The notes beneath the pieces were generated by a model. It saw nothing but the letters and a program-made list of their open reading frames with translations, was not told the origin of the DNA and did not search any database. From Microcoleus sp. CAWBG506 (GTDB lineage Bacteria; Cyanobacteriota; Cyanobacteriia; Cyanobacteriales; Microcoleaceae), in contig JAHREW010000029.1 of the NCBI GenBank assembly GCA_020883125.1, forward strand, positions 9,712 to 73,711: 64,000 bases of DNA, written 5' to 3'. Both the position numbers and the translations under genes were made by a program. Shown here piece by piece: positions 1,049 to 58,330 of this stretch (the first letter of the stretch is position 1; each line of letters opens with the position of its first letter).

Positions 1049-4000
1049 TTAATTTTCCACAGCCCCTAAAGCTTTGATCGTGGCTTTTTCAACTTCAGTT
1101 AAACCCGTAACACCCGTGATATTCATCCCCTCATAAGGTCTGTCACTTTTCAGTATTTTGATGCACTCACCAGTCTCAAAATCCCAAATCCTAATTGTGC
1201 CATCCCGACTGCAAGCAGCAATAATTATTTCATTTGAACTGAAGGCAACTGAGTTAATTCTACTCGTATGACCTTGCAAGATTTTGAGACATTCACCTGT
1301 ACTGATATCCCATAATCTTACCGTTCCATCTACACTTCCACTAGCAACAATTTCACCAGAATAACTAAAGGCAACTGAACGTATCCAATCAGTATGCCCC
1401 TGTAAAATTTTGAGACATTCACCGCTGCGGACATCCCATAGTCTGATTGTTCGATCGACACTTCCAGTGGCAAGTATTTCACCGTTATGGCTAAAGGCGA
1501 TCGCGGGTGCCCAACCCGTATGCCCCTGTAAGACGTGGAGGCATTCACCAGTATGGATATCCCACAGCCTCACCGTTCCGTCAAAACCTGCACTGGCAAA
1601 TATCTCGCCCAAAGGACTGAAAGCAGCCGAGTTTACAGAATTGTTATGCCCCTGCAACGTTTTGAGGCATTCGCCAGTACCAATATCCCACAGCCTCACC
1701 GTTTGGTCATAACCTGCACTAGCAAGTATTTCACCCGAAGGACTGAAGGCGATCGATCGTGTTTCATTGCCAACTTCTGGCAAAGTATGAAGGCATTCAC
1801 CACTGCGAATATCCCACAGTTTCAGTGTTTGGTCGTAACTAGCGCTGGCAAGTATTTGACCCGAAGGATTGAAGGCAACTAAGTTTACCCGATCGAGGTG
1901 TCCGCGCAAGATTTGGGGGCATCCACCGCTGCTGACATCCCACAGCTTGACAGTTTGTTCGTCATCGCCGCTGGCAAGTATTTTACCGTTGGGACTGAAG
2001 GCGATCGACCTTACTTGAGTGCTATACCCTTGCAGTGTATTCAAGCATTCACCGCTGTCGATCGCCCACAGCATTAGCGTTTTATTATAACTACCGCTAA
2101 CAAGTATTTCACCAGCAGGATGGAAGGCGATTGACCCTACTCGATCGTTGTGCCCTTGCAAAGTATTCAAGCATTCACCAGTGCGGATATCCCATAGTTT
2201 TGCTGTGCGATCGTGACTGCCACTTGCAAGTATTTCGCCCGAAGGACTGAAGGCTATTGACCGTACTTGATCGAAATGTCCCTCTAAAGTTTTGAGACAT
2301 TCAAAAATGTTGATATTCCACAGCCTCACTGTTTTGTCGCCACTGCCAGTAGCAAGTATTTCACCAGCAGCATTGAAAGCAACTGAAAACACGTTTTTAG
2401 TATGTCCCTGCAAGATTTTAAGACATTCACCACTGTTGATATTCCACAGTCTCACTGTTTTGTCACCGCTTCCACTGGCAAACATTTCACCAGCAGGATG
2501 GAAAGCGACTGAAAACACATTTTCAGTATGACCGTGCAACATTTGCAGGCATTCACCCGTGCGGATATCCCATAACCCGATCGTGCGATCGAAACTCCCG
2601 CTAGCGAGTATATTTCCATCAGGATGGAAGGTGACAGACATTACTGATTCGGTATGTCCCTGCAAAACTTTTAAACATTCACCTGTCTTAACATTCCATA
2701 ACTTAATTGTTTTGTCATAACTCCCGCTAGCAAGTATCTCACCGTCAGGACTGAAGGCGACTGACTCCACCACGTTGGTATGTCCTTTACAGGTCAATAT
2801 TTCTCTGAAACTGCTAGCTTCCCACAAGCGAACTACGCCATTACTATCACCTGTAGCTAACAGTTGGCCATCTGGACTAACTATGACCGATCGAACACTG
2901 CCGAAGATTTTCGTAAAAATAGAATTAGTCAAATTCGCTTCAGCAAAATTGACGCGGCGCAGGATAGCATTTGTAAAATCAGCGCCTAAAATAACTGCAC
3001 GAGAAAGGTCTTTTGTTTCTAACGCAGTGCGATCGATTTTCACCAACAGCGTCGCCGCATTCCCTCCCACGTAACCTACCTCAATTTCGGTTTTTCCTCG
3101 CGTTGCTTCCAGAATTTCTAGTAGGGACGACTTCTCTAAAGCCCCCCTTGTTAAGGGGGGTTGGGGGGATCTCTTCTGGCTAACATCGTCACTATCCTCT
3201 CTCTCTAATAGGAATTCGGGGGTTCTCTCGTGATTGGCATCGTCACGATCCCCCCCGGCCCCCCTTAACAAGGGGGGAGAAATTGCATCCAACATTGGTA
3301 ACAACAAATCCATCACTGCTTTCGTCAGCGGCGCGTGTCCGAAACTATTACAAAGTTGCCCTAAATCTTCAGCAACAAATCCCTGCAAAGGCGCAATGAG
3401 TTCACCATTACTTCTCTTTCGGGCTTGCAATCGACAATAATTAGACCAAGTGTATGATTGAGGCGCTGCATTAGGATCTAAACACGATTGTTCCGGCGCA
3501 ACTAATTCGGTAAAATCTGGTGCCAAAACTCCTAATTCCGCTGCAAATTTGTAAGCGACAAAAAACTCTAACAGCGAACGGTGCGCCGGAGTGTAATCGC
3601 CGTCGGCATTACGAATCAGCATGGTTTGACCCATCATATCGTAATGCCAGTGGTCTAAGTCTTTTTCCTCTTGGACGATGGAACCAAACAAGCTGCGAAT
3701 GCGATCGGGAAAACCGCGATAATTGAGACTCATTTGGTCTGTAGATACCATTTCCCAAGAGAGTTCGCACAAGAAATAAAGCTTATCTGCTAACGAAGTG
3801 AAAGTCCGTTCGGCTTTGATATCTCTCTCTATCTTCCGTCGCACTGCATACAGATAAATCCGCGACATATCCACTGGTTTTCCAGCTTCAATATCGGGCA
3901 ATGCTTCCAAAATTAACTCGGTCATCACCGGGCGGCGCGCTAAATCCAATAGTTGCAGGTTTCCCATCACTTTTTCGACAGTTGCGGCTTCTGTTTGAAC

Positions 4001-6466: not shown

Positions 6467-8350
6467 TTACCCGATCGCGCTTAAGTGCGATCGAAAATAT
6501 TGCCGATACAAATCGCACCGGGGCACGCATTCACTCCCCTGCAATTTCACTAACCCCAAGCTATCTAATTTAAATGCTTGCATTGCCTTTAATTTTACTG
6601 GAGAATCTGCCACTGCAATCTCTCTCATCCCCGTGACCAAGTCTGGATATTCTTCCAAATTCCATAATTGGCGACGCAAATGGTCGCTGTAAATTCCAGC
6701 TTCAGCAATCGCAGTTTCTTGTAATTCATTAATAGTTAATTCTGACTGCGAAAAGTGATATAATGCAACTCGCACCAGATAAGGATGTCCGCCCACAATT
6801 GCCATCAATTTTTCAACTTCTTGATGAGACCAATGCAAGTTGTGGCGCGCTGCTAAATCTTCGATTTGTTCGGCGTTGAATTCCGGCAAATCAACAGGTA
6901 ATCCCACGTTGAAAGGCGATTGATTGATATTCATCGGGATATAAACTTCCGTGGAATGAACTACAATTAATCGTAGTTTTTTCCAGATATCGCGTCGCTT
7001 CGATTCTTCGTGCCACGCCCGCAGCAGTCCTAAAAAGTCTTCGGCAATGTCGGGATATTGAAAAACGCGATCGATCTCGTCTAATCCTAACACCAAAGGA
7101 GTGTCGATTTGGGGCAACAAATATTTTTCAAAGTAATCTTTGCAGTTAACTTTGCTCCCAAAAATTTCATCCCAATAATCGTCGAGTTGATTGGGTATGT
7201 GTAATTCTCGCCCTACATAGGCACAAAACCACTTGAGAAATTTATCAAGATTGGCAAATACATGTTTATCAACTAATTGAAAAGTGAGCGGAACTGTGCG
7301 ATAATCTTGACAGGATGCGTGGTGCAAAATTTTGGCCATTAAAGAAGTTTTTCCCATCTGTCGGGGAGCTTTAATTCTAATTAAGGCGCTGGGCTGCAAA
7401 ATAGTTTGATAACACCGTTCTTCGATGGGAGGACGTTCTACATAAAATTGAGAAGTGACATCCACTTGTCCTCCCGGCAATTCTGGTTCTGCTGTGGGTA
7501 AAGGGATGTTATGGCTAGTAATTTTTAATACTTGATTCTGGATTAAATCTGCTGGTTCATCTTTGATAGGGGCGGCACTTTCTGCTAACAAACTCATAAT
7601 TTCTTCGATCAAAATTGGAGTATCTGCGGTTGTTTGCCATTCCCTTTGTTTGATGCGGTAAAGATAGCCTCGCAAGTCGTGATTGAGAGGCTCATTCAGG
7701 GAAAAACCGACGCGAATTGGTAAAAGCACTGGCTTTTTGTCAGCGCGAGAATCTTGCAATTCTTTGGCTTTTTGAACTTGATAAGTTAGCAGTTCGCTCT
7801 GGTTGACAGTAGGTGGCAATAACAATAATAAATAATCGCATTCTTTGAGGAATAAGTTAATGCGATCGAACCAATTATCTCCTAATTTAATGCTGTTTTC
7901 GATGGTAAAGACTGTATGCCCGATCGCACTTAAGGCCATTTCCAACTGTTTGCCTAATTCGCGATCGGGCTCAAGGCTATGATAGCTGATAAAAATCTTA
8001 ACACTTCGGCTGCTAGGGGCTGTTTCTTCAGTCGGTGGCAAATTCCTCGGCCCATCGGCATCTTCCCCATCATCTAGTTTAGCCGATCGATGGTCGCCAT
8101 TGGCTAAAGTCAAATCAAAAGCAGCAAACAATTGCCGAATTTTACTCTCGTCGGCACCTTCTCTACCCTGCCTAATTTTGCTGACTGTATCGGCACCAAC
8201 GCCAGACTCAGCCTCTACTTCGGTCAGAGTACCTCTAATGTTATATCGGTCAGACCATTCTTGGATCGCCTCATTAAGCTTCTTTAAGCCTGGGGCGGTG
8301 AGAATTCGACCGCGATCGCGTTTTGACTTGATCACTTCGCTTGCACTCAA
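6467..8350 (-). CDS. XRE-like HTH + TIR + AAA-like (AAA_35-type) STAND protein
   Basis: N-terminal HTH-like segment; KIFISYH TIR start; Walker A APRQMGKTS, Walker B LVLGLDEID; C-terminal GGHPYLVR. Confidence 0.85.
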   Translation of the reverse strand: MSASEVIKSKRDRGRILTAPGLKKLNEAIQEWSDRYNIRGTLTEVEAESGVGADTVSKIRQGREGADESKIRQLFAAFDLTLANGDHRSAKLDDGEDADGPRNLPPTEETAPSSRSVKIFISYHSLEPDRELGKQLEMALSAIGHTVFTIENSIKLGDNWFDRINLFLKECDYLLLLLPPTVNQSELLTYQVQKAKELQDSRADKKPVLLPIRVGFSLNEPLNHDLRGYLYRIKQREWQTTADTPILIEEIMSLLAESAAPIKDEPADLIQNQVLKITSHNIPLPTAEPELPGGQVDVTSQFYVERPPIEERCYQTILQPSALIRIKAPRQMGKTSLMAKILHHASCQDYRTVPLTFQLVDKHVFANLDKFLKWFCAYVGRELHIPNQLDDYWDEIFGSKVNCKDYFEKYLLPQIDTPLVLGLDEIDRVFQYPDIAEDFLGLLRAWHEESKRRDIWKKLRLIVVHSTEVYIPMNINQSPFNVGLPVDLPEFNAEQIEDLAARHNLHWSHQEVEKLMAIVGGHPYLVRVALYHFSQSELTINELQETAIAEAGIYSDHLRRQLWNLEEYPDLVTGMREIAVADSPVKLKAMQAFKLDSLGLVKLQGSECVPRCDLYRQYFRSHLSAIG

Positions 8351-30708: not shown

Positions 30709-32964
30709 TTAGGGGATATATTTGGGTTGAAAATTACGCAACCGCAAAGCATTAGTCAGGACGGAAACTGAACTAAAAGCCATGGCACCACCGGCGATGA
30801 TTGGACTTAGTAGCCAGCCAAAAATGGGATATAAAATACCTGCTGCGATCGGAATTCCAGCGATGTTGTAAATAAAGGCAAAAAACAGGTTTTCGCGGAT
30901 GTTGCGCATGGTGGCGCGCGACAGTTGAATGGCTGTAACTATTCCTTGCAAGTCTCCAGAAATTAGGGTTATGTCGCTCGCTGCGATCGCCACATCTGTC
31001 CCGGTACCGATCGCAATTCCCACATCCGCTAGGGCCAAAGCTGGAGCATCGTTGATTCCATCTCCCACCATCGCTACAATTTTGCCTTGTGCTTGCAGTG
31101 CTTGGATTTTAGCTGCTTTTTGGTCTGGTCTAACTTCTGCAAAAATGCGATCGATCCCAACAGCATGGGCGATGGACTCCGCAGTTGTGCGGTTGTCTCC
31201 TGTGAGCATCACCACTTCTAAACCCAGTTTTTGCAGTGCTTTCACCGCCCGCGCCGAAGACGGTTTGAGGGCATCGGCAATGCCCAGAATCGCCTCAATT
31301 TTGCCCTCCACAGCCATCCAAACCACAGTTTTACTTGCAGATTCCCAAGCTTTGGCGCGGAGTTCCAAATAATCAGTATCAAAGCCTAATTCCTGCATCC
31401 ATCTGAGTGTTCCCAGGGCGATCGACTTTCCCTCCACAACCCCCCGGACGCCACTTCCGGCGATCGCCTCAAAATCCTTAACATCTGTTAAAATTACCTC
31501 TTGAGATTCACCATATCTCACCACAGCTTCACCGACAGGATGCTCAGAATTTCGCTCCACAGACGCTGCCAATTTCAGCAGTTTTAATTCATTGCTGTTC
31601 GCGCTTCCTTTAATTGTGACAAAATCAGTGACAGTCGGCTTGCCTTCCGTGATAGTCCCAGTTTTATCTAACACAATGACTTGAATTTTATGAGCCAGTT
31701 CTAAACTCTCAGCTCCTTTAATTAAAACTCCATTTTCTGCACCTTTACCAGTCCCCACCATCACCGCCGTCGGAGTTGCCAAACCCAAAGCACAAGGACA
31801 GGCAATAATCAGCACTTCCACCATGGTAACTGTTGCCAAAGTCAAGTTTCCCGTCGCATTAAACCAAATGATAAAAGTAGCTAAAGCAATGGCTATTACG
31901 GCGGGAACAAACCAACCAGTCACCTCATCTGCCAACTTTTGAATCGGTGCTTTAGACCCCTGGGCATCCTGCACAATCTTGACAATTTGAGCTAAAAATG
32001 TATCCTGACCAATCCTAGTAGTACGAAACTTAAAGCTGCCAGTTTTGTTAATTGTCGAGCCGATAACTTCGTCACCCACTTGCTTTTTGACTGGCAAACT
32101 TTCCCCTGTTACCATTGCTTCATCTATGGTGGAATAGCCTTCAATCACCTCTCCATCTACGGGAATTTGTTCCCCTGGCCGCACCTGCACGATATCGCCA
32201 ATTTTCACTTGGGCTAATGGCACTTCCAACTCTTGCCCGTTGCGAACAATCAGAGCCGTTTTCGCTTGCAAACCCATGAGTTTCCGAATCGCCTCAGAAG
32301 TCTCTCCCTTCGCCCGATTCTCTAGGGTTTTACCAAGCAAAATAAGGGCAATCACACTCGCTGCAACTTCATAATAAACGCTGGGAATCAAACCCTGGGC
32401 TAGGAAAAATCCGGGAAAAAGTGTTACACATACAGAATAAAAGTAAGCAGAACTGGTTCCCAAAACAATCAGGGTATCCATTGTCGCTAGGCGGCGTTTT
32501 AGCGATTTCCACGCTCCTATATAAAATGAGTTACCACACCAGAATTGTACTGGTGCTGTCAGCACTAATTGCAGCCAAAAATTGTGCAGCCATCCGGGAA
32601 TAAATGGCAAATGCCAACCAGTCATAGCTGGAATGGAACCTGTAAATAGTAACAGGCTAATCATACCTGCTGTCCACAATTTACGTTGCAAAACTTGAGA
32701 TTCAGCTTGACGAGTTGCTTGCTCGGTGTCATCCTCGCCCTGGGTCATTTCTGGAAGCGGAAAAGCTTTGTATCCCGCCGCATCAACAGCTTCTTGAATT
32801 GTTGCTAAGCTGGTTTTTTGGGAGTCGTATTGGATGCTTGCTTGTTCCATGCCAAAGTTGACATTGCACTCAATGACACCGGGAACGGATTTAATTGCTT
32901 GTTCAATGGAAGAGGCACAGGAGGCACAACTCATGCCTTGGAGTTTGACTGTGAGATTATCCAT
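30709..32964 (-). CDS. pacS: Cu(I)-translocating P1B-type ATPase (PacS/CopA-like)
   Basis: GMSCASC metal-binding domain; TGES; [10 protein letters not shown]; DKTGT; GDGINDAP; YN and MAFSS TM motifs. Confidence 0.9.
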
Positions 32965-39516: not shown

Positions 39517-39954
39517 CTACTGAACTCCCTCAATCAAACTGCAAAGTTGCTCGCCATCTGGATTGTCTAAAGCTCGATTTGTCCAAAGTTTTTGATAAGC
39601 TTCCAACTCAGCTTTGAACGCACTCATGCGCTGAATTTCCTCCTCAACGAAATCAATTTTACGACTTAATAAGTCTTGCACCAGCGGACAAGCTGTTACT
39701 CCTTGATGGCGAGATACCAAAATTTGGTGAATTTCTTGAAGAGAAAAGTTGAGTCTTTGGGCTTTCTTGATAAATTGCACTTGTCTGGCGGCATCGGCTG
39801 TGTAGTAACGGTAGCCGCTACTGCTGCGTAAGGCAGGTTCCAGTAACCCTAAGCTTTCATAGTATCGCAGGGCGCCTACAGCAACACCAGTTTGTTTGGC
39901 TAGTTCTCCAATTTTTAGTAGATGTTCTAGGGATTCTGTTTCAAATTCTTTCAT
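39517..39954 (-). CDS. MerR-family heavy-metal-responsive regulator
   Basis: LKIGELAKQTGV..GALRYYESLGLL HTH; two Cys (TACP, QLCS). Confidence 0.9.
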   Translation of the reverse strand: MKEFETESLEHLLKIGELAKQTGVAVGALRYYESLGLLEPALRSSSGYRYYTADAARQVQFIKKAQRLNFSLQEIHQILVSRHQGVTACPLVQDLLSRKIDFVEEEIQRMSAFKAELEAYQKLWTNRALDNPDGEQLCSLIEGVQ

Positions 39955-43774: not shown

Positions 43775-43834
43775 AGTGAAAGTAAGACCGTTAATGCAAG
43801 TTATCATGGTTTAATTTTAACCATGATTTTCATT

Positions 43835-43938
43835 TCTTAGTCCGCGAAGGCGGACTTCATTTGTGTAGTTTGAGCTCGAATTCGTATGACGGGCGCTTCG
43901 CCACATACGAATTTTAGGTCAACAGGTTTCAACCGCCG
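43835..43938. repeat. REP-like element with a nested hairpin insertion
   Basis: Flanks match the reverse complement of 56874-56925, but 56 nt (AATTCGTATG...CATACGAATT hairpin) replace 4 nt. Confidence 0.65.
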
Positions 43939-43985: not shown

Positions 43986-44663
43986 ATGAAAATCTTGCTA
44001 ATTGAAGACGACGATCGCATTGCCAAACCTCTAGCAGAAGATTTAAGACATCAAAATCATGCCGTCGATATAGCGAGTGACGGCATCGAAGGTTGGGATT
44101 ACATCGAATCAGTTAATTATGACCTAATTTTGTTAGATTTGATGCTACCCAAATTAGATGGAATTACGCTGTGTAAGCGTCTGCGTGCAGCTAAGTCCAA
44201 CGCTCTAATTTTGATGCTGACAGCACGAGATACAACCTCAGATAAAGTCCAAGGACTCGATGCGGGGGCTGATGATTATTTAGTTAAGCCTTTTGAATTA
44301 GAAGAATTAGCGGCAAGAATCAGAGCTTTATCTCGCAGAATTCCAGAAACCAAGCCGCTGATTTTAAGCCACAGCCATTTGCAACTAAATCCCAGTAGCT
44401 TCACCGTCACCTACGGCAATCAATCTTTATCTTTAACACCCAAAGAATATATGATATTAGAATGCTTTTTGAGAAACCCCGCTCAAGTTTTGACTCGTGC
44501 AGCAATTTTAGATAAACTGTGGGATTTCGATCGGTCTTCTGGAGAAGGCACTGTTAAGACTCACATTACAAATCTGCGGAGCAAGCTAAAAGCAGCCGGA
44601 AGCTCAGAAAATTTCATCGAAACAGTTTATGGAATTGGTTATCGTCTCAATGGCACTAACTGA
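43986..44663 (+). CDS. OmpR-family response regulator
   Basis: MKILLIEDD; LDLMLPKLDG; GADDYLVKPF; IETVYGIGYR. Confidence 0.93.
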   Translation: MKILLIEDDDRIAKPLAEDLRHQNHAVDIASDGIEGWDYIESVNYDLILLDLMLPKLDGITLCKRLRAAKSNALILMLTARDTTSDKVQGLDAGADDYLVKPFELEELAARIRALSRRIPETKPLILSHSHLQLNPSSFTVTYGNQSLSLTPKEYMILECFLRNPAQVLTRAAILDKLWDFDRSSGEGTVKTHITNLRSKLKAAGSSENFIETVYGIGYRLNGTN

Positions 44664-44707
44664 AAATCCATATTTTCACAAACAAATGATTAATATTCTC
44701 CTGACTT

Positions 44708-45985
44708 TTGCAGATTTTTCAAATGATGTTTACCAAAATTCGCTGGCGCTTGCTGTTATCTTATCTGGCAGTATTCACCTCAATCTTAGTCATTTTTGCC
44801 GCCGGGGTTCGGCTTTTGTTCGCGCGCAGTCTCACCCAACAGCTAACAGACAGACTGACTACTTTAGGACAAGGAGCCGCGACTAATGCAGATTTTGAAA
44901 ATGGACGGATTAAAGTTGAAAGTGACTTTATTGCCAGACCATTTATTCATAAAAATCAGGGATTGCAGTGGTTTGATGTGAACGGCAACTCGGTTTTAAA
45001 GCAAGGAAATTTTGTGCTAAACTTGCCTTTGTCGATGAGTCAAGACCCGATAAAAATTGAAATAGGAAAAAGTCGAATTCAAGCAGTTATCTTACCAATT
45101 ATGGGGAGCGAGCAGCGTCAACTGATTGGGTATATTAGAGTCAGTCAATCTTTAGAAGAAGTTGACGAAACTTTAACTAAATTAGATTGGATACTGGGGA
45201 GTAGTATTATCATAGCTTTAATCCTCAGCGGATTTAGCGGAGTAATTTTAACTCGGCAAGCCGTGCAGCCAATAGAAGAGAGTTTTCAACGGTTAAAACA
45301 GTTTACGGCTGATGCTTCCCACGAACTCCGAAATCCTTTGATGGCGATCAAAAGTAATGCAGCAGTAGCATTGAAGTATCCAGAAAATATGAGAGAATCA
45401 GATGTAGAAAAGTTCCAAGCTATTGTTAGTGCGGCCAATCAAATGACGCGCCTGACAGAAGATTTGCTGCTGTTAGCTAGGGGTGAGACAAATGGCGATC
45501 GCCCCGAAGCTTCTGTCAACTTAAGCGCAACTTTGTCCAACTTATTATCATTGTATCAGCCAGAAGCTCATGCTAAAAAAATTGATTTAAAATCTGAGAT
45601 TGGCGAGGATATGTACTTGCTAGGAAATGTGGGACAACTGACACGGCTGTTTGCCAATTTGATTGAAAACGCACTCCACTACACGCTGTCAGGAGGAACA
45701 GTTGAAGTTACAGCTAACTTAGTCCGTTGCTATTTAACTGTTAGCGTGCGGGATACGGGGACGGGAATAGCACCAGAGCATCTTAAACTGGTGTTTGAAC
45801 GTTTTTGGCGGGCGGATGAGTCTCGTTCCTATTGGGAGGGGGGTTCTGGTTTGGGATTGGCGATCGCCAAAAACATTGCCCAAAATCACGGCGGTTCAAT
45901 TACTCTCAACAGTCAGGTAGGAGTTGGCAGTTGCTTCACAGTGCGATTGCTATCTGTTAAAGTATCTGATAATTTACAGGGTTAA
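44708..45985 (+). CDS. Sensor histidine kinase (two TM helices, HisKA, HATPase)
   Basis: FTADASHELRNP; NLIENALHYT; DTGTGI; GGSGLGLAIA; start may be ATG 44723. Confidence 0.93.
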   Translation: MQIFQMMFTKIRWRLLLSYLAVFTSILVIFAAGVRLLFARSLTQQLTDRLTTLGQGAATNADFENGRIKVESDFIARPFIHKNQGLQWFDVNGNSVLKQGNFVLNLPLSMSQDPIKIEIGKSRIQAVILPIMGSEQRQLIGYIRVSQSLEEVDETLTKLDWILGSSIIIALILSGFSGVILTRQAVQPIEESFQRLKQFTADASHELRNPLMAIKSNAAVALKYPENMRESDVEKFQAIVSAANQMTRLTEDLLLLARGETNGDRPEASVNLSATLSNLLSLYQPEAHAKKIDLKSEIGEDMYLLGNVGQLTRLFANLIENALHYTLSGGTVEVTANLVRCYLTVSVRDTGTGIAPEHLKLVFERFWRADESRSYWEGGSGLGLAIAKNIAQNHGGSITLNSQVGVGSCFTVRLLSVKVSDNLQG

Positions 45986-46113
45986 CTTGCTAATTTATTA
46001 ACAAATTTTCAATTAAACTAATCTTATTCTTGATTGCTTATAAACCTCACAAATCATTGACAAATTCTTTGATAAAGTGTAGATTATTTGAAGTTACTAA
46101 ATTTATATCAATT

Positions 46114-46797
46114 ATGTTACGAAAGTCTTACGAGTTTTGGTTGCAGCAGATCAACCCTCATATAACCACTTTGATCGTGACAATTGGTGTTGTTGGAATT
46201 GCCAGTTGTCTGTCGATCAGTTTTATGTTAGCATGGCTATTTCAAGAAGTATTAGAAAAAGAAGCTTTTGGCTTTGATAGTGCTTTGTTGTACTGGATAC
46301 ACGGGTATGCTAATCCGAGTCTAGATGCTGTGATGCTGACAATTACTCAGCTTGCCGATGCCAGTGTTGTAGTAGTTATTGTCGCAGTCACGTTGGGAAT
46401 TCTTTGGTGGTACAATCACCGTTCAGAAGCTAAATTGTTTGCTATTGCTTGTTTAGGAGCTTTGATTCTGAATACTGGCATGAAGTTAGTTTTTGCTAAA
46501 CCTCGTCCCCAGATTTTTCCGAGTTTAATTCCTGAAACATCTTTTAGTTTTCCTAGTGGTCATGCTTTGGGAGGTTTTGTGATGTATGGGTTTCTAGCTT
46601 ATCTGCTTTCCGCTCACTTTCCCAAGTTTTCCAAATTGATCTATACTCTAGCTGTTTTTACGATCGCGATTATTGGCCTGAGTAGGATGTATATAGGAGT
46701 ACACTGGCCGACAGATATAATTGCTGGCTACGGAGTCGGCTATATTTGGTTGATGATGTGCATCATAATGCTGAAGTTGCAAACCAGACAAGTCTAG
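46114..46797 (+). CDS. PAP2-family membrane phosphatase
   Basis: K...KPRP; FPSGH; SRMYIGVHWPTDI; ATG 46114. Confidence 0.9.
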   Translation: MLRKSYEFWLQQINPHITTLIVTIGVVGIASCLSISFMLAWLFQEVLEKEAFGFDSALLYWIHGYANPSLDAVMLTITQLADASVVVVIVAVTLGILWWYNHRSEAKLFAIACLGALILNTGMKLVFAKPRPQIFPSLIPETSFSFPSGHALGGFVMYGFLAYLLSAHFPKFSKLIYTLAVFTIAIIGLSRMYIGVHWPTDIIAGYGVGYIWLMMCIIMLKLQTRQV

Positions 46798-46915
46798 TAT
46801 TGCTTTGCTAAAATCTAGCTAATATCAAGCTGCTTTTTGACGTAGCATCTCGCAAAAAAAATATGGGTTTATATTAAGTTAATAGCCTAAAAATAATGTA
46901 AAATACTCTTCTATT

Positions 46916-46948
46916 ATATCCCCGACTTCTTCAAGAAGTCGGGGATAT
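46916..46948. terminator. Perfect 15-bp inverted repeat between convergent genes (REP-like, possible bidirectional terminator)
   Basis: ATATCCCCGACTTCT-TCA-AGAAGTCGGGGATAT. Confidence 0.55.
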
Positions 46949-46981
46949 GAGTATTCTATTTTTTGAGGCTTACTTACTAGA

Positions 46982-47737
46982 TTATTGATTGTTATAAGAT
47001 TCTGGGGCGATTAGTCTTCTATGCTTCAAAGTTGTGAATACGACACAGGCTCCAAGTATTGACAAAAGGACTATAGATGAACCCACCGTACCAAAATTGA
47101 GGCCACCTTTTTCGTGTGATTTTGTCAGAACATCGCCCAGTGTTGCACCAAATGGTCTGGTGAGAACAAACGCCACCCAAAACAACAAGACTGCGGAAAA
47201 TTCGGTAAAATAATGCGCTGCTAATACTACGGCAAGTAAACTGGAAATTAGGAATGCTCCTCCTGCAAATCCAAGTCCAGAAGTATCGGCGAGGAAATCG
47301 CCCACCGCAGTACCCAAAGTATTTGAAAATAGAATTGCAATCCAATAAAGCAGCTCAATTTTAGGCGTTTTGACGTTCTTAACACATAGAGATCCAACAC
47401 TGAATCGCCAGAATGCCAAAGTAGCCAAGAGAAGAGTAAGTAAAATCGTAGATCCTATAGTGTAGCCAAGCCCTAAAGTGCGATTCATGTAATCTGACAT
47501 CGTTGTACCAGCCGTGCTGGTTGAAAGGATGACAGTCCAATAAAGCAATGGGTTATAGCTTTTCGACATCAATTGAGACACAAGACTCGCTAAGAAGACT
47601 CCAATCAATATCGTGGAACTCACCGCATAGCCCACGTTTAATGTCATGGATAAAAGGTCTCCTGCCGTTTCCCCCAGAGTGGTTGCACATATCTTCATGA
47701 TCCAGAAAAAGGCAGTGATTTGTGGAAGTTTGCTCAT
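46982..47737 (-). CDS. COG4705/DUF347-repeat membrane protein, paralog B
   Basis: FWIMKICATTLGETAGD; YW...ST.GT; FW.AFVLTRPFGATLGD. Confidence 0.82.
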   Translation of the reverse strand: MSKLPQITAFFWIMKICATTLGETAGDLLSMTLNVGYAVSSTILIGVFLASLVSQLMSKSYNPLLYWTVILSTSTAGTTMSDYMNRTLGLGYTIGSTILLTLLLATLAFWRFSVGSLCVKNVKTPKIELLYWIAILFSNTLGTAVGDFLADTSGLGFAGGAFLISSLLAVVLAAHYFTEFSAVLLFWVAFVLTRPFGATLGDVLTKSHEKGGLNFGTVGSSIVLLSILGACVVFTTLKHRRLIAPESYNNQ

Positions 47738-47763
47738 TTTTGCGATCGGGTTATCCTACTTTG

Positions 47764-47808
47764 GCGATTTCACTCTAGAGGATAAATGTCAAGAACTTGG
47801 AAAGATTG
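47764..47808 (-). promoter_or_regulatory. ATCTT-N6-TTCTT promoter motif, copy A
   Basis: caATCTTtccaagTTCTTgacatttatcctcTAGAGTgaaa. Confidence 0.7.
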
Positions 47809-47915
47809 ATTACGTTTGTGTTTACCAGGGGTAATGTGGCAATTGCAGCGTGAAACAACTGCCCACGCCTAGCTAAGTTGTCACAGTAAGAGTAATCCCA
47901 TGATTCGATCGCTAA

Positions 47916-48683
47916 TCAGTCTTGTTGGTCAATCGGCAGTGGGGCTAGTTTCTTCTGCTTAAGGCTTAAGTAAATAACCAGACTGACGATTATAGAAAGA
48001 AAAAGCATACTGGTTCCGATCGTACCAAAACCAAAACCACCATTTGTAGTAGGTTGTGACAATAAGTCGCCAGTAGATGCTCCCAGCGGACGAGTCAAGA
48101 TATAAGCTATCCAAAATGCCAAGACTGCATTCATTTTTAAGTAATAATAACCAGCGGCTACTATCCCAATTAAAACGCCAAATACTAATGCTGATTGTGC
48201 GTAACCCAGCTTCAAAGCCTCTGCTAGAAAATCTCCTGTTGACGTCCCCAAAGCAAACGTAAATAAGATAGCAGCCCAATAAAACAGCTCTCTTTTAGCT
48301 GTGTTGATGGAGTGCATAGCTAATGTCTTTTCGTTTGAATACCAAAGCCCAAAAATTACCAACAAAACAACACTAAAAACTATATTAATTGTCATAAAAT
48401 TAACACCCAGATTGTCTACCAATCTATCGGTAATTAGTGTACCAGTGATACTCATCAAAACGACTACAATCCAGTAACTCGCTGGCACATACCGTTTCAG
48501 CCTAAACTGATTCAAAAGCCCCATCAGTAACACAGCGCTCATCACATAGGATGTAACGCTTAAACCAAATTTCAGGTTTACTGACAGATAATCAGCCAGA
48601 GTTTCACCTACTGTGGTTGCCAGAACCTTAATAATCCAGAAAGAACCTGTAACCTCTGGAACCCTGTTTAGTATCTTGTTCAT
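47916..48683 (-). CDS. COG4705/DUF347-repeat membrane protein, paralog A
   Basis: RVPEVTGSFWIIKVLATTVGETLAD; FWIAYILTRPLGASTGD. Confidence 0.85.
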   Translation of the reverse strand: MNKILNRVPEVTGSFWIIKVLATTVGETLADYLSVNLKFGLSVTSYVMSAVLLMGLLNQFRLKRYVPASYWIVVVLMSITGTLITDRLVDNLGVNFMTINIVFSVVLLVIFGLWYSNEKTLAMHSINTAKRELFYWAAILFTFALGTSTGDFLAEALKLGYAQSALVFGVLIGIVAAGYYYLKMNAVLAFWIAYILTRPLGASTGDLLSQPTTNGGFGFGTIGTSMLFLSIIVSLVIYLSLKQKKLAPLPIDQQD

Positions 48684-48809
48684 AATATTTCTCCTTTGGG
48701 TCGATCGTTGAGTGTTCTAGATTTGGGATATTTCTCCAACTAAGGGCTGGCACTCATAGCACCGCCCCTACTCTATTTGTTGCCTAAAGAAAGCGAATTT
48801 GTTCGAGAT

Positions 48810-49307
48810 TTACTTCTTGGCATCATCATTAGTTTCTCCATCCCCATCGCCGGCAGCAGCCTCGGAAGTTTGAATGCTGCTGCGGGGAGAAATACTTTCC
48901 TTATCCTCAGCTTTTAGGCTTTGTGTCTGGAGGATTTTACCGTTACCAGCATCTACACTTATTTTTTGTTTACCGATACTGACTGAGTATACAACGTTGC
49001 CGTCTTCGTTTTCTAATTTGACAGTATTTGCGGTGCCACCTTTAGCAGCTTCTGCTGCGGAGCGTGCCTGTTCGGGCGTAATTTTAGCTAGAGATTGTAG
49101 GTGACTTGATTCTTGCTTTTCTTTCGCATCATCATTCGTTTCGCCATCGCCATCACTGGCTTCAGGTAATGATTTGGCGTTTTGGCGATCGGACATTACG
49201 GCAACCTGAGATTGCGCTGGCGAAGCGTACACAGTTCGGACTAATCCACCCAGCCCTAAAGTACCGACTAAAACAGTGGCTAGAGCGATTTTGGTTGAGG
49301 TTTTCAT
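48810..49307 (-). CDS. Secreted PepSY-domain protein with two acidic DGDGETNDDAK motifs
   Basis: Signal peptide; ITPEQARSAAE...VKLENEDGNVVYSV...VDAGNGKIL PepSY pattern. Confidence 0.85.
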   Translation of the reverse strand: MKTSTKIALATVLVGTLGLGGLVRTVYASPAQSQVAVMSDRQNAKSLPEASDGDGETNDDAKEKQESSHLQSLAKITPEQARSAAEAAKGGTANTVKLENEDGNVVYSVSIGKQKISVDAGNGKILQTQSLKAEDKESISPRSSIQTSEAAAGDGDGETNDDAKK

Positions 49308-49338
49308 TGTTTGAAACTTCTTTAATTTTGGTTTACAG

Positions 49339-49379
49339 TTTCAATGTAGATGACAAAAGTCAAGAACTTAGTAAGATTT
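49339..49379 (-). promoter_or_regulatory. ATCTT-N6-TTCTT promoter motif, copy B
   Basis: aaATCTTactaagTTCTTgacttttgtcatcTACATTgaaa. Confidence 0.7.
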
Positions 49380-49458
49380 TAAACATTGGGCATATTGTCA
49401 ACTACAGAGTTTATTATTGCAATTTGCATCGTCAAATCCTCTCCATGTAAATTTGCGC

Positions 49459-49499
49459 TTTCATTATAGAGGACAAATGTCAAGAACTAGGAAAGATTA
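49459..49499 (-). promoter_or_regulatory. ATCTT-N6-TTCTT promoter motif, copy C
   Basis: taATCTTtcctagTTCTTgacatttgtcctcTATAATgaaa. Confidence 0.7.
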
Positions 49500-50927: not shown

Positions 50928-52400
50928 TCAAATTGCCTCCTGCATTTCTACTAATCTGCTAGTTTCAAGACGCTGTTGTCTGATTGGTAGCGAAATTACA
51001 AATTCCGTACCTTCTCCAAGTCCCGAAAGGCACTCCAAGCAGCCGCAGTGCTTTTCTCGAACAATTTGGCTGCTAATTGATAACCCTAAACCCGTTCCTT
51101 TACCGGCGGGTTTTGTGGTAAAAAAGTGGTTAAATATTTTATCTTTGACTTCTTCAGTCATTCCAGGGCCGTTATCAGAAATGCGGATGACTGCCCGATC
51201 GCCTTCCGCGACTTCTGTGCTAATCTGAATCGTGAGCAAGTTTTTCTGAACACCCGCAACTGACGAATTAGAACTGTCTCGCAAAACATCAATGGCATTA
51301 CTGATAATGTTCATGAATACCTGATTTAGTTGCCCTGCATAACATTCAACCAGCGGTAAATCGTCGTATTCTTTAATCAGTTGGATAGCAGGGCTTTTGC
51401 CATTTGCTTTCAGTCGGTGCTGAAGGATTAGCAGGGTACTGTCGATTCCTTCGTGAATGGAAGCAAAATTCATACCGTCTGTGTCTAAACGCGAAAAATT
51501 TCGCATCGACGAAACAATCACGCAGATTCTGTCAGTTCCCACCTTCATTGAAGAGAGAAGTTTTGGCAAGTCTTCGCTTAAAAAATCGAGTTCTACTGTC
51601 TCAATTTCCTCTTGAATTTCTTCTACGGGATTAGGATAATATTTGGCATATAAATTGACTAGCCCTAACAAATCTCTAACATAATTGCGCGCATAGGAAA
51701 TATTCGCATCAATAAAGTTAATCGGATTGTTGATTTCGTGGGCAATTCCTGCTGTCAGTTCTCCCAAAGCGGATAACTTTTCGGTATGTACTAATTGAGC
51801 TTGGGTTTGCTGAAGTTGTTGCAAAGCTCGTTCTAGTTGTTCGGCTTTTTCTCTCAATTGAGACTCGGATTATTGCAGTGCTTTTTTGGCTTTTTTCCGC
51901 TCTAGAACTTCTTTAATTAAAGAATCATTTGCTTTGGAAAGTTTTGCAGTTCTGGCGTTGACTCGCTGTTCCAATACTTCTGCTAGTTCAGCGAGCGCCA
52001 CCTCGGCTTTCCGGCGTTCTCCAATTTCATTTTCTAATGCTAAGTTGGCTGCTTCTAGCTTGGCAGGACTGGGAAGAGCCAGTGCAAAAGGCATCAAGGT
52101 TAATAGCAACAAAACTGAACTTCCGGCTACGAAAGCTGTAATGGCTTTCATAAACTCTGACACTAAAGATTCAGGAAACCAAACATACCATGTTTCTATG
52201 ACGTGGGTTGTCCCACAGGTGACGAAGAATGCTCCAAATACCAGGAACATCCACTGAAAGGGGATATCTCGCCCTTTGTAAAGGGCATAAACTAGCATTG
52301 TGGGAATTAAATAATAGGAAACTACGATCATAATTTTCAGCCAGTTCCAATTAGGCATTCCAGAGTTGACTAAAACCGAAGCTATTGCTAAGCCAATCAT
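50928..52400 (-). pseudogene. Ethylene-receptor-like membrane domain histidine kinase split by one in-frame TAA (51872-51870)
   Basis: ORFs 51870..52400 and 50928..51857 are in the same frame (KKALQ*SESQLREKAEQ); YYLIP and CGTTH in the TM part; AHEINNP, DNGPG and GKGTGLGL in the kinase. Confidence 0.8.
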
Positions 52401-55879: not shown

Positions 55880-56060
55880 GATCGCCAACAATGTATACAA
55901 TAGGGGAGCCGTGTCCCTACAATAGGGGAGCCGTGTCCCTACAATAGGGGAGCCGTGTCCCTACAATAGGGGAGCCGTGTCCCTACAATAGGGGAGCCGT
56001 GTCCCTACAATAGGGGAGCCGTGTCCCTACAATAGGGGGGTAGATCGCCAACAATGTATA
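55880..56060. repeat. Six identical 22-bp tandem repeats plus a partial copy, flanked by an 18-bp direct repeat
   Basis: Unit ACAATAGGGGAGCCGTGTCCCT at 55897-56028; GATCGCCAACAATGTATA at 55880 and 56043. Confidence 0.95.
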
Positions 56061-56086: not shown

Positions 56087-56776
56087 ATGAGAGTTTTGCT
56101 AGTTGAAGATGAGCCAGATTTAGGAAAAGCGATCGATCGCACTTTAAAACAAGAAAAATATATAGTTGACTGGGCGCAGGATGGCAGTGAAGCTTGGGAA
56201 TATTTAGATAGTCATTGGACTCAATACAATCTGGCGATTTTTGACTGGTTGCTTCCAGGATTATCAGGATTGGAACTGCTGCGAAGATTACGTGCGAAAA
56301 ATAGCGCATTGCCAGTTTTGATGCTAACAGCAAAAGACCGAATGCAAGATAAAGTAGCGGGACTAGATGCCGGGGCTGACGATTATTTAGTTAAACCCTT
56401 TGGGATGGCGGAACTGTTAGCAAGATTGCGGGCTTTGCAAAGGCGATCGCCCCAAATTCAGCCGCAACAATTAGAGGTAGGAAATCTAATTTTAGACTGC
56501 GGAAATCGCACAGTTTTTCGGCTGGATGGCGGTGGCAAAAATCAGAGCATTTTCTTGACAAACAAAGAATTTCAATTACTAGAATACTTTATGAAACATC
56601 CGAATCAAATTGTCACAACTGACCAAATTCGGAATCAGCTATGGGAGGTTAGTGCAGATACTTTTAGCAATGTGGTAGCGGCTCAAGTGCGCTTACTGCG
56701 GCGTAAACTTGAGTCGGTTGGCGGCGCGAATCTAATTGAAACTGTACATGGTGTTGGATACCGGATGAGAAATTAA
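56087..56776 (+). CDS. copR: OmpR-family response regulator, CopR/RppA-type
   Basis: MRVLLVEDEPDLG..I..TL; FDWLLPGLSG; KPFGMAELLARLRALQRR; own TTTCAT box upstream. Confidence 0.78.
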   Translation: MRVLLVEDEPDLGKAIDRTLKQEKYIVDWAQDGSEAWEYLDSHWTQYNLAIFDWLLPGLSGLELLRRLRAKNSALPVLMLTAKDRMQDKVAGLDAGADDYLVKPFGMAELLARLRALQRRSPQIQPQQLEVGNLILDCGNRTVFRLDGGGKNQSIFLTNKEFQLLEYFMKHPNQIVTTDQIRNQLWEVSADTFSNVVAAQVRLLRRKLESVGGANLIETVHGVGYRMRN

Positions 56777-56789
56777 ACTAGGGCGGGCA

Positions 56790-56973
56790 GGATGCCCACC
56801 CCACAAGAACATTTAATTTTTGTGGAACAGGCATCTTGCCTGTTCTTAAGAATTGCCCAAAATGCAAGATACTCGGCGGTTGAAACCGCGTCTACACAAA
56901 CAAAGTCCGCCTGCGCGGACTAAGAAAAGAATACTTCTTGTCCCCCCCTTGTTAAGGGGGGTTAGGGGGGATC
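56790..56973. repeat. Cluster of REP-like palindromes between the regulator and kinase genes
   Basis: GGGCGGGCAGGATGCCCACCCC; GAACAGGCATCTTGCCTGTTC; 56874-56925 element; CCCCCCCTTGTTAAGGGGGGTTAGGGGGGATC. Confidence 0.7.
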
Positions 56974-56998
56974 TCCGGGTCAATTGTCGTTATGAAAA

Positions 56999-58330
56999 AT
57001 GAATCAAAATAAACTATTTAATCGGACCCGATCGCAATTAGCGATTTCCTATGCAGCAGTCATGGGTTTGATTTTAAGCTTGTTGGGATTTGGGGTATAT
57101 AAGGCGATCGCCCACGCGCACTGGGTAGCCATAGACAGGGAGTTAGAATCGGTAGCAGGGACGCTACACGACAGCCTAGAACTCAAATTGCAGCAGCCAG
57201 GACGGTTGGAACCCATCGTAAATGAACTTTTGCCCAACCTCCGCGTAATTGGAATTAACGGCATTAAGCAACCGATTCGCCCTCGCCATATTTTAAGCGC
57301 GATTAACCAAGGCTATTACTATATTCGTTTATTTGATGCTTCCGGGAAATTGATTGCTACAGCGGGCGCAGAGCCTGATGAATTACCCGCAGAATTTAAT
57401 TCTAAATATTGGCAAACCATTACTGATAGGCAAGGCAATGTTTATCACCAACTTTCTGTATTTTTACACACAAAAAACCAGGAAGATTGGGGATATTTTC
57501 AATTAGGTCGCAGTCTGCAAGACTTTAATGATTATCTCAATACAGTCAAATGGGTTTTGAAATTGGGATTGCCGACAGCATTGATTTTGATTGGTTTTTC
57601 TAGTTGGTTGTTGGCAGGATTGGCAATGAGACCGATTTACTCTTCCTACCGACAAATTCAACAGTTTACAGCGGATGCTGCTCACGAATTGCGTACTCCT
57701 TTAGCGGCTTCCCAGGCAACAGTAGAATCGGCGCTGTTGATGCCTGAATTGGATGAAAAAGAGGCGCGGGAAATTTTGCGGACGATCGATCGCCAAAACC
57801 GACGATTGACTCAATTGGTTGCTGATTTGCTGTTGCTGGCGCGCATGGATCATCAACCGATCGCCGATCGCCCTCAATTGTGTTGTTTGAATGACTTGGT
57901 TAGCGATTTGGTCGAGGAATTGGCTGCAATGGCGATCGCCTCCGAGGTAGCGCTAACATCGGAATTGCGGGTGCAGCAGCCATTGAATGTTGTCGGTAAT
58001 TCCGACCAACTTTATCGCCTAGTTGCTAATTTAATTGTGAATGCGATTCAATACACTCCGGCTGAGGGGAAAGTAACAGTTATTTTAGATTGCACTCATA
58101 CCGAGGCGATAGTTCAGGTTCAAGATACTGGTATGGGGATTGGGGCGATCGAACAACGGCGAATTTTCGATCGCTTCTACCGAGTAAATAGCGATCGATC
58201 GCGCCATACCGGCGGTTCGGGATTGGGATTGGCGATCGCCCAAACCATCGCCCGCGCCCATCGCGGTAGCCTCAGTGCCCGCAGCGAATTGGGCTGTGGC
58301 GCTACTTTCCTGCTGCGGTTGCCTCTGTGA
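56999..58330 (+). CDS. copS: Sensor histidine kinase, CopS/RppB-type
   Basis: MNQNKLF..TR..LA..YA; AHAHW; FTADAAHELRTP; NLIVNAIQYT; GGSGLGLAIA. Confidence 0.78.
   Translation: MNQNKLFNRTRSQLAISYAAVMGLILSLLGFGVYKAIAHAHWVAIDRELESVAGTLHDSLELKLQQPGRLEPIVNELLPNLRVIGINGIKQPIRPRHILSAINQGYYYIRLFDASGKLIATAGAEPDELPAEFNSKYWQTITDRQGNVYHQLSVFLHTKNQEDWGYFQLGRSLQDFNDYLNTVKWVLKLGLPTALILIGFSSWLLAGLAMRPIYSSYRQIQQFTADAAHELRTPLAASQATVESALLMPELDEKEAREILRTIDRQNRRLTQLVADLLLLARMDHQPIADRPQLCCLNDLVSDLVEELAAMAIASEVALTSELRVQQPLNVVGNSDQLYRLVANLIVNAIQYTPAEGKVTVILDCTHTEAIVQVQDTGMGIGAIEQRRIFDRFYRVNSDRSRHTGGSGLGLAIAQTIARAHRGSLSARSELGCGATFLLRLPL

Follow-up and report, generated by a model that had tools for sequence, protein, structure and literature searches.

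Three copies of one short element lie among envelope genes in a stretch of 64,000 nucleotides from the cyanobacterium Microcoleus sp. CAWBG506 (contig JAHREW010000029.1; hereafter the window, with coordinates counted from its first letter), and they raise two questions: what the element does, and what purpose is served by the genes around it, which encode two DUF347 membrane proteins, a secreted PepSY protein, a PAP2 lipid-phosphate phosphatase and a regulator-kinase pair. To the first we answer, with near certainty, that the element is a promoter box in which a tandem repeat takes the place of the -35 hexamer. To the second we answer, with a little better than even confidence, that the locus is the cyanobacterial counterpart of the mmf cassette of Cupriavidus metallidurans and would form a small cation-triggered envelope stress regulon.

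A repeat finder placed three copies in the window in a single family (47761-47807, 49332-49378 and 49452-49498 in + strand coordinates); they share 77-87% identity, and their starts are separated by 1571 and 120 nt. We quote the length of the element as 35-47 nt. The three near-identical minus-strand motifs that an initial annotation had described were recovered with the pattern ATCTT-N6-TTCTTGACWTTTRTCMTC, which, at ≤3 mismatches, matches at three places only in the 64 kb; each of the three is a perfect match on the minus strand, and no match arose in 100 shuffles. On the minus strand, the element consists of ATCTTkmC-nAk-TTCTTGAC and, 10 nt further on, TAnnnT; the -10-like hexamers stand exactly 10 nt after the box in each case: TAGAGT at 47772-47777, TACATT at 49343-49348 and TATAAT at 49463-49468. 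The three promoters are as follows.

47772..47806, minus strand: promoter of DUF347 B (box 47788-47806, 10-nt spacer, -10 TAGAGT); the same site lies upstream of DUF347 B in related loci L001-L009
49343..49377, minus strand: proximal box (49359-49377) with -10 TACATT; working promoter of the PepSY gene and probably of DUF347 A
49463..49497, minus strand: distal box (49479-49497) with -10 TATAAT; orphan promoter left by deletions

The box is itself repetitive. Its Nostoc form, ATCTTGAC-N3-TTCTTGAC with tat as N3, is a clean direct repeat of 11 bp; the upstream half-site in the window's clade is ATCTTTCC, and the window repeat is ATCTTTCC-N3-TTCTTGAC. The 11-bp period, proposed earlier to fit binding by the OmpR family, is that of a tandem direct repeat, a conserved operator of OmpR/PhoB-type geometry. 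In the pho box of PhoB, a tandem repeat ends 10 bp 5' of the -10 and stands in for the -35. The box described here shares this design, being a tandem repeat of 11-bp period that lies 10 bp 5' of the -10 and replaces the -35, but its half-site is TTCTTGAC, whereas that of PhoB is CTGTCAT, and the adjoining regulator is of another clade, nearest to RppA yet under that model's cut-off. None of the three box promoters in the window was called by a scan for canonical sigma-70 promoters. The TTGACA inside the box was considered as a -35 and rejected: its TTGAC stands 9 nt from the -10, not 16-18 nt, and therefore cannot serve as one.

Conservation of the box, its targets and its probable reader

We fetched 80 loci encoding relatives of DUF347 A, of which 77 were of cyanobacterial type, ranging from Microcoleus (96% identity) to Nostoc, Chroococcus, Chamaesiphon and Pseudanabaena (~70%), and 3 came from the beta-proteobacterium Sulfuriferula. 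A scan for ATCTT-N6-TTCTTGAC placed the box in nearly all of the cyanobacterial loci and in none of the three from Sulfuriferula. When TAnnnT was required 10 nt on, at ≤1 mismatch, 169 sites were obtained in the 1.18 Mb of the 80 loci, compared with 0.05 in Markov resamples, and the -10 begins exactly 10 nt past the box in 201 of 204 sites. Conservation extends to positions that the scan left unspecified, namely a C at position 8, an A at position 10, the TTT that follows the box and the AAA that follows the -10. The box is thus conserved near orthologues of the window genes, stands almost exclusively before PepSY and DUF347 genes and in most cases neighbours orthologues of the regulator. A literature search for the box sequence in cyanobacteria returned nothing relevant; what is added here is a sharply defined operator and core regulon in cyanobacteria, including Nostoc punctiforme PCC 73102, on plasmid pNPUN02.

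Two observations concern the edges of this distribution. The Sulfuriferula copies of DUF347 A (L074, L078, L080) are 64-67% identical to that of the window and have neither box nor regulator, which suggests lateral transfer. One locus on a contig labelled Tatlockia and binned in Legionellales (L032) is of cyanobacterial type, with boxes, and is probably mis-binned.

The window genes and the features between them, all gene calls of the initial annotation (OmpR/histidine kinase pair, PAP2, two DUF347, PepSY) being borne out by Pfam, are these.

43986..44663, plus strand: OmpR/PhoB-family response regulator (Pfam Response_reg and Trans_reg_C); presumed box binder
44708..45985, plus strand: sensor histidine kinase with two membrane helices and a ~120-aa periplasmic domain (Pfam HisKA, HATPase_c, ArlS_N)
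46057..46085, plus strand: canonical sigma-70-like promoter, TTGACA-17-TAGATT, just 5' of the PAP2 start (consensus scan 10/12; a pattern match only)
46114..46797, plus strand: PAP2 lipid-phosphate phosphatase (Pfam PAP2 2e-22); likely start ATG 46114, in a reading frame open from 46030
46914..46950, no strand assigned: probable two-way terminator, a perfect hairpin of 16-17 bp that separates the convergent genes for PAP2 and DUF347 B (inverted repeat 100% complementary; top terminator-like site)
46982..47737, minus strand: DUF347 B, the MmfC2-type paralogue (Pfam DUF347, four repeats)
47916..48683, minus strand: DUF347 A, the MmfC1-type paralogue (Pfam DUF347, four repeats)
48810..49307, minus strand: secreted PepSY protein with an acidic ETNDD motif flanking the domain on both sides (Pfam PepSY 5e-9)
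49379..49429, minus strand: 16-codon stub (MQIAIINSVVDNMPNV), remnant 5' end of a lost ETNDD/RTX gene (alignment to L001)

Target genes in the related loci were counted where a box lay ≤400 nt upstream on the same strand. By this count the box precedes PepSY genes in 57 of 61 cases, DUF347 A genes in 48 of 78, DUF347 B genes in 16 of 61, PAP2 genes in 3 of 48 and regulator genes in 1 of 60; no box was found upstream of the regulator in the window. An unbiased scan of metagenome contigs with the exact pattern yielded 69 sites with a proper -10, downstream of which lay genes for PepSY (22), DUF347 (8), an ETNDD/RTX protein (3), RND pumps (3) and PAP2 (2). Rarer targets of the box are genes for Omp85/POTRA, signal peptidase I, BacA (BacA/UppP carries a box in two loci), a GT21 glycosyltransferase and an SRPBCC protein.

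As for the protein that reads the box, an orthologous regulator-kinase pair lies ≤8 kb from DUF347 A in 60 of the 77 cyanobacterial loci, in several gene orders, and from this co-location, the sole evidence on the point, we consider it likely that the neighbouring regulator 43986 is the reader. The best NCBIfam match of this regulator is the RppA model (234 bits, cut-off 250), and the kinase scores 252 bits with the RppB model (cut-off 400), only the kinase core being matched; membership of the pair in RppAB (NrsRS/CopRS-type) was therefore rejected on the score cut-offs. A second pair in the window (56087-58330) passes both, with 406 and 703 bits, and its regulator is 44% identical to regulator 43986. 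In kinase 44708, the second membrane helix is preceded by the segment GY(I/V)RVSQSLEE(F/V)DETL, which 55 orthologues conserve.

The earlier distinction between this element and the CopR box also holds, since the other box, TTTCAT-N5-TTTCAT, is real: it has six exact + strand sites in the window (33323, 34241, 40583, 49522, 50251 and 55824), with 1.2 expected, and these lie upstream of the genes for DUF305, a CusB-like adaptor, the CusA/CzcA pump 40619, lipoprotein 49586, DUF2808 and the regulator of RppA type at 56087. They seem to mark another regulon, of copper or nickel type, interleaved with the mmf-like one and, because the two regulons have distinct boxes, the TTCTTGAC box would belong to regulator 43986.

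A different account, which we regard as very unlikely, is that the element is a dispersed or mobile repeat, or is read by some regulator other than its neighbour. It draws on the facts that copies have taken part in recombination (the distal one in the window combines two promoters present in relatives), that many loci sit on plasmids, and that in one locus, L046, DUF347 A lies within an RppAB-type operon and the adjoining regulator is of RppA type. Conservation, however, is limited to the box and the -10 at fixed spacing, with diverging flanks; the element is always oriented towards the downstream gene, and the downstream families recur; it is conserved from Microcoleus to Nostoc, Chroococcus, Chamaesiphon and Pseudanabaena; and the neighbouring RppA-type regulon has a different box. 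On the fixed geometry and the recurrent target genes, the mobile repeat was rejected.

Recombination does explain the distal box. Two promoters had been proposed to stand before the PepSY gene; both boxes are real, but only the proximal one is a working promoter. Window 49498-49394 aligns to L001 3050-3154, and the window from 49383 onward to L001 from 3948 onward, ~790 bp that encode an RTX-repeat protein in L001 being absent from the window, where the start of the lost protein survives in the 16-codon stub. The box corresponding to the distal one drives, in the closest relatives (L001, L004, L008 and L009), a gene of its own, which encodes an ETNDD-repeat protein with RTX calcium-binding repeats, and a further box upstream of this RTX gene drives a 647-aa kinase gene; the distal window box aligns to both L001 boxes, at 866 and at 3051. 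The window has apparently lost these two box-controlled genes by recombination between boxes and, because they are missing relative to L001, the distal box is left as an orphan. The same deleted layout occurs in L005, so it is not an assembly error.

The mmf cassette and the two DUF347 classes

The view that the module is new in kind did not survive comparison with plasmid-borne DUF347 genes. A search of plasmids for DUF347 turned up the order PepSY, undecaprenyl-diphosphatase, DUF347, small protein, DUF347, regulator, kinase on Pseudomonas pBYT1-2, and the window module corresponds to the mmf cassette of Tn6048. This cassette, mmfA-B-C1-D-C2-R-S ("multiple metal response"), was described in C. 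metallidurans CH34 and is also found on pHB44 and pBS64 (PMC4914505). It further occurs on pMOL98; pHB44, pBS64 and pBYT1-2 are IncP-1 beta plasmids. In Cupriavidus, the mmf genes are known to be induced by zinc (Zn) and lead (Pb), and plasmids with mmfB raise bacitracin resistance (PMC4914505).

By BLASTP, DUF347 A is 55% identical to MmfC1 and DUF347 B 50% to MmfC2, whereas comparisons across the classes give 34-36% (B with MmfC1, 36%). The regulator is 32% identical to MmfR and the kinase 29% to MmfS over the core only, the domain families agreeing; PAP2 matches MmfB at 28% over 159 aa; the PepSY protein has no pairwise BLAST match to MmfA and corresponds at the domain level only; and MmfD gave no significant tblastn match in the window or the 80 loci. 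Judged by these alignments, the DUF347 pair is a firm counterpart, and the remaining parts correspond in composition. Common to the two systems are a PepSY protein of small size, a PAP2/undecaprenyl-diphosphatase, DUF347 proteins of two classes and a kinase paired with an OmpR-type regulator, and both are set among metal-resistance genes. They differ in that here the regulator, kinase and PAP2 genes converge on those for DUF347 B, DUF347 A and PepSY, that MmfD is missing and the locus is not on a Tn5053-type transposon, that the window PepSY protein has ETNDD motifs where MmfA has an Asp/His-rich tail, and that the cyanobacterial regulon adds RTX, Omp85, LepB and BacA. The cyanobacterial genes are thereby connected to a poorly understood cassette.

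The proposal that the two DUF347 proteins act as a pair gains from the finding that A and B are distinct, anciently paired paralogue classes. DUF347 A orthologues are 64-97% identical across cyanobacteria, and A and B also occur as single chains, in P0122 (Crocosphaera) and in P0121, which matches MmfC2 at 75% identity over its C-terminal half; these fusions and the conserved pairing jointly support a heteromer. A model of P0122 reached a predicted template modelling score (pTM) of 0.56, at which the A-B interface cannot be judged; its C-terminal half was thinly covered because MAFFT put the B orthologues on the N-terminal half. The fusions came to light in a profile search for diverse DUF347 homologues, which otherwise returned mostly the same cyanobacterial proteins. 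The family (COG4705) is large, with 4173 clusters at 50% identity (E ≤1e-10), and is found in many bacterial phyla and in marine algae; its longer members include fusions of PAP2 with DUF347 (P0289, P0362).

Structurally, the family stands apart. An AlphaFold model of DUF347 A (76 sequences) has eight helices arranged as four hairpins, with a pLDDT (confidence score) of 88 and a pTM of 0.86. Foldseek found no match for it in the PDB (best E 0.5, TM ≤0.38; ClC, TehA, DPAGT1, YetJ), and a profile search against PDB sequences gave 0 matches for DUF347. Each odd-numbered helix begins with an invariant Trp (16, 71, 136, 191), followed 15 residues on by an invariant Asp (31, 86, 151, 206); the other invariant residues are E27, K19, E132 and R198-P199. 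Positively charged loops lie between the hairpins and at both ends; applied to them, the positive-inside rule would place the tips of the hairpins, and the four Asp beneath these tips, on the periplasmic side. In P0280, P0284 and P0285, a conserved cytoplasmic domain of ~140 aa without a Pfam match is attached at one or the other protein end, which fits both DUF347 termini being cytoplasmic.

The PAP2 protein carries all catalytic motifs in its translation (KX6RP, PSGH and SRX5HX3D), and its closest solved relatives are Bacillus subtilis PgpB/YodM (5jki, 3e-20) and LpxE (6ebu, 3e-6), both of which presumably also act on undecaprenyl pyrophosphate (C55-PP). Its inclusion in the module, as first proposed, stands in part: the link to DUF347 is conserved across phyla (the two are neighbours in Cyanobacteria, Proteobacteria and Bacillota) and extends to the fusions, but the window PAP2 gene is outside the control of the motif, lying behind the regulator-kinase pair with its own sigma-70-like promoter. 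In Nostoc, the PAP2 gene sits within the DUF347 A-B operon. The pairing of the two classes points to their joint action, and the fusions and neighbourhoods tie them to periplasm-facing lipid-phosphate phosphatases; in the literature searched, we did not find the operator, the core regulon, the two paralogue classes or the A+B and PAP2-DUF347 fusions described. The neighbourhoods of DUF347 genes in other bacteria are listed below.

Priestia: DedA, regulator, kinase, PAP2, DUF347, with DedA flanking PAP2
Azospirillum: DUF347, PepSY, DedA, PAP2, DedA, kinase, in a metal-gene context
Rhizobium: DUF347, PAP2, regulator, kinase
Bradyrhizobium: regulator, kinase, DUF347, small protein, and a 256-aa unnamed protein placed where mmfC2 would be
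Enterobacter, IncHI2 plasmid: DUF347, regulator, kinase, nothing else
Methylophaga thalassica, plasmid (L213, 1101-7309): regulator, kinase; eptA, PAP2, DUF2231, DUF347, dgkA, gene of the lipoteichoic acid (LTA) synthase family
Sphingobium: DUF347 beside a multicopper oxidase and ArsR
Ralstonia and Deinococcus: DUF347 solitary

On a Priestia megaterium plasmid (L083, 5968-7170), the C-terminal ~150 aa of the DUF347 protein resemble MmfD by eye (DLE..WDS.EA…C K.A); this would be another within-cassette fusion.

Such neighbourhoods bear on the idea that DUF347 and PepSY are accessory sensors that modulate the kinase in a loop like that of CpxP-CpxA or ZraP-ZraS, PAP2 and the other members being the real output. 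CpxP, Spy and ZraP are parallels for accessory sensing, as are the PepSY genes that belong to the Pseudomonas aeruginosa bqs operon. The Enterobacter plasmid, where DUF347 accompanies a regulator and kinase only, and likewise Bradyrhizobium, suit this idea, and so do the near-constant presence of the box before PepSY genes, more constant than before any other target, and its near absence before the regulator and kinase genes themselves, since feedback would then need an induced partner. We nevertheless find it improbable: DUF347 occurs without a nearby two-component system in Ralstonia, Deinococcus, Sphingobium, Sulfuriferula and eukaryotic algae, its fusion to PAP2 argues for an effector, and two conserved classes of 8 + 8 helices would be excessive for a modulator.

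Possible roles in cation handling and lipid-carrier handling

DUF347 proteins have carried the vague label of stress-associated metal transporters, and the observations above turn it into a testable choice between the handling of cations and that of lipid carriers. In the mechanism that we favour, kinase 44708 would sense a periplasmic signal, most likely an excess of divalent or hard metal cations, and phosphorylate regulator 43986, which would bind as a tandem dimer to both direct repeats of 11 bp (ATCTTkmC and TTCTTGAC), placed at about -41 to -23 instead of a -35, and recruit RNA polymerase to the -10, 10 bp downstream. The proximal box would then serve the PepSY-DUF347 A unit and a box of its own DUF347 B, the distal box driving nothing. 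The secreted PepSY protein, with its acidic ETNDD motifs, may bind cations or serve the kinase as a feedback partner; DUF347 A and B, as a heteromer with four hairpins per chain and an Asp near each periplasmic tip, may form a cation pathway or cation-binding site; and the periplasm-facing PAP2 would work with them by releasing phosphate that immobilises metal, in the manner of PbrA/PbrB.

For DUF347 itself, we propose this role, a cation pathway or site that works with phosphate released by PAP2, only tentatively and at somewhat less than even confidence, because acidic residues are invariant in the protein, because it stands in metal contexts and is reported as metal-induced, and because it occurs alone and in algae without peptidoglycan and lipopolysaccharide (LPS). 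A DUF347 gene of a diatom is metal-induced (PMC4531530), and polar algae are enriched in DUF347, which was labelled there a putative stress-associated metal transporter (PMC9756366). In Frankia, UppP-DUF347 operons are induced by lead, and a logic like that of PbrA/PbrB has been proposed for UppP and DUF347 (PMC4531530). In the PbrA/PbrB lead-resistance system of pMOL30, a metal exporter is paired with a C55-PP phosphatase, the metal is precipitated as phosphate, and PbrB is fused to a signal peptidase (PMC3431237). The module resembles it in having a membrane PAP2-type phosphatase with intact motifs beside a proposed membrane metal pathway, and the PbrB-signal peptidase fusion has a likeness in signal peptidase I, which is a box target in some loci; it differs in that it lacks a P-type ATPase and a MerR regulator and is under a two-component system, and in that DUF347 transport is putative.

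The N-terminus of the PepSY protein is like a signal peptide, and DGDGETNDDAK occurs twice, once on each side of the domain, a pair also seen as a DNA repeat. ETNDD or EVNDD is present in 65 of 203 box-controlled proteins of L001-L080, including the unrelated RTX protein, and the pentapeptide could be a cation site or a recognition tag. With CpxP, Spy, ZraP and Lanpepsy the PepSY protein shares small size, secretion and the position of strongest target of its own stress system, but the fold of CpxP, Spy and ZraP differs from that of the window protein. The ZraPSR system responds to Zn and Pb. Lanpepsy, a PepSY-domain protein, is reported to bind lanthanides (PMC9988556).

Systems that join metal cations to lipid phosphates are familiar: in PmrAB and ColRS, which are OmpR-type, metal cations lead to the control of periplasm-facing lipid-phosphate enzymes. 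Like these and the eptA-pap2-dgkA cassettes, the window locus couples an OmpR-type two-component system with periplasm-facing lipid-phosphate enzymes, but it holds neither a phosphoethanolamine transferase nor dgkA.

It is here that the principal alternative arises, a lipid-phosphate or lipid-carrier module in which DUF347 A/B flips undecaprenyl phosphate inward, or presents C55-PP or lipid A to PAP2; the regulon would restore carrier recycling or remodel envelope phosphates, metals being one trigger among others. It can point to the PAP2-DUF347 fusions and the PAP2 neighbour in several phyla, to BacA/UppP, which is boxed in two loci and co-operonic with DUF347 in Frankia, to DedA flanking PAP2 beside DUF347 in Priestia and Azospirillum, to the Methylophaga series eptA-PAP2-DUF2231-DUF347-dgkA under a two-component system, to the bacitracin resistance conferred by mmfB plasmids, and to the names of the nearest solved PAP2 relatives (5jki and 6ebu), phosphatidylglycerophosphatase and LpxE. 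We nonetheless consider it unlikely. The lipid-carrier flippase of the initial annotation found no direct support: Pfam detects only DUF347, and no DedA or DUF368 domain, in either window protein; the invariant residues are mostly acidic, the only basic ones being K19 and R198, which suits cations above an anionic phosphate head group; DUF347 is also solitary, and metal-responsive in diatoms and dinoflagellates without peptidoglycan and LPS; and a second flippase would be redundant where DedA is present. DedA/UptA and DUF368/PopT are, like DUF347, small membrane proteins of several helices that have genetic links to C55-PP phosphatases and envelope stress control, but there is no domain in common, and DedA genes accompany DUF347 and are not replaced by it. 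That DUF347 A/B is a new fold, a third unrelated family of undecaprenyl-phosphate translocases that partners PAP2/BacA and is induced by a dedicated stress system, we credit with little probability. The two accounts might also be joined, by way of speculation, if soft or borderline metals complexed the pyrophosphate head group of C55-PP and the regulon restored carrier recycling.

The cation-triggered regulon that we prefer has a number of points weighing against it. DUF347 has no recognisable energy-coupling module, and no solved fold backs the transporter label; the periplasmic placement of its Asp residues is inferred from the positive-inside rule and secondary structure; and in the kinase, no obvious metal site made of His, Cys or Met is present in the periplasmic domain. 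The Omp85, signal peptidase I, BacA and GT21 targets point to general envelope upkeep in preference to metal handling, as does the Methylophaga operon eptA-PAP2-DUF347-dgkA. The DUF347 protein in that lipid A modification operon is only ~33% identical. Orthology to mmf is firm for the DUF347 pair only, the other proteins being at 28-32% or matched at the domain level and MmfD absent, and in the RppAB-type context of L046 another regulator could read the box. A search of sequencing runs matched the window sequence to metagenomic DNA runs only, and two runs that matched a Scytonema locus (L022) gave contigs of depth 2-6 only, which is uninformative; one of these contigs begins at 7930, ≤10 nt from the predicted start, and was too weak to be used.

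The surrounding metal island

The initial annotation missed the metal-resistance island around the module. The 64-kb window holds a P-type ATPase, DUF305, a CusB-like adaptor, two CusA/CzcA pumps and MerR, as well as FTR1, a multicopper oxidase and the second two-component pair; the P-type ATPase (30709-32964) and MerR (39517-39954) genes lie outside the module and have no box.

Some smaller features of the island were also recorded. At 43803-43925, between a pump gene and the regulator gene, there is a cluster of hairpins and inverted repeats that may be a terminator or a repeat element. A histidine kinase gene on the minus strand (50928-52400) is interrupted by one in-frame stop, which separates a membrane part of 176 aa from a kinase core of 309 aa, and may be a pseudogene, a read-through site or the result of a sequencing error. 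Finally, between the genes for the multicopper oxidase and the RppA-type regulator, positions 55896-56038 form a perfect tandem array of 6.5 copies of the 22-nt unit TACAATAGGGGAGCCGTGTCCC.

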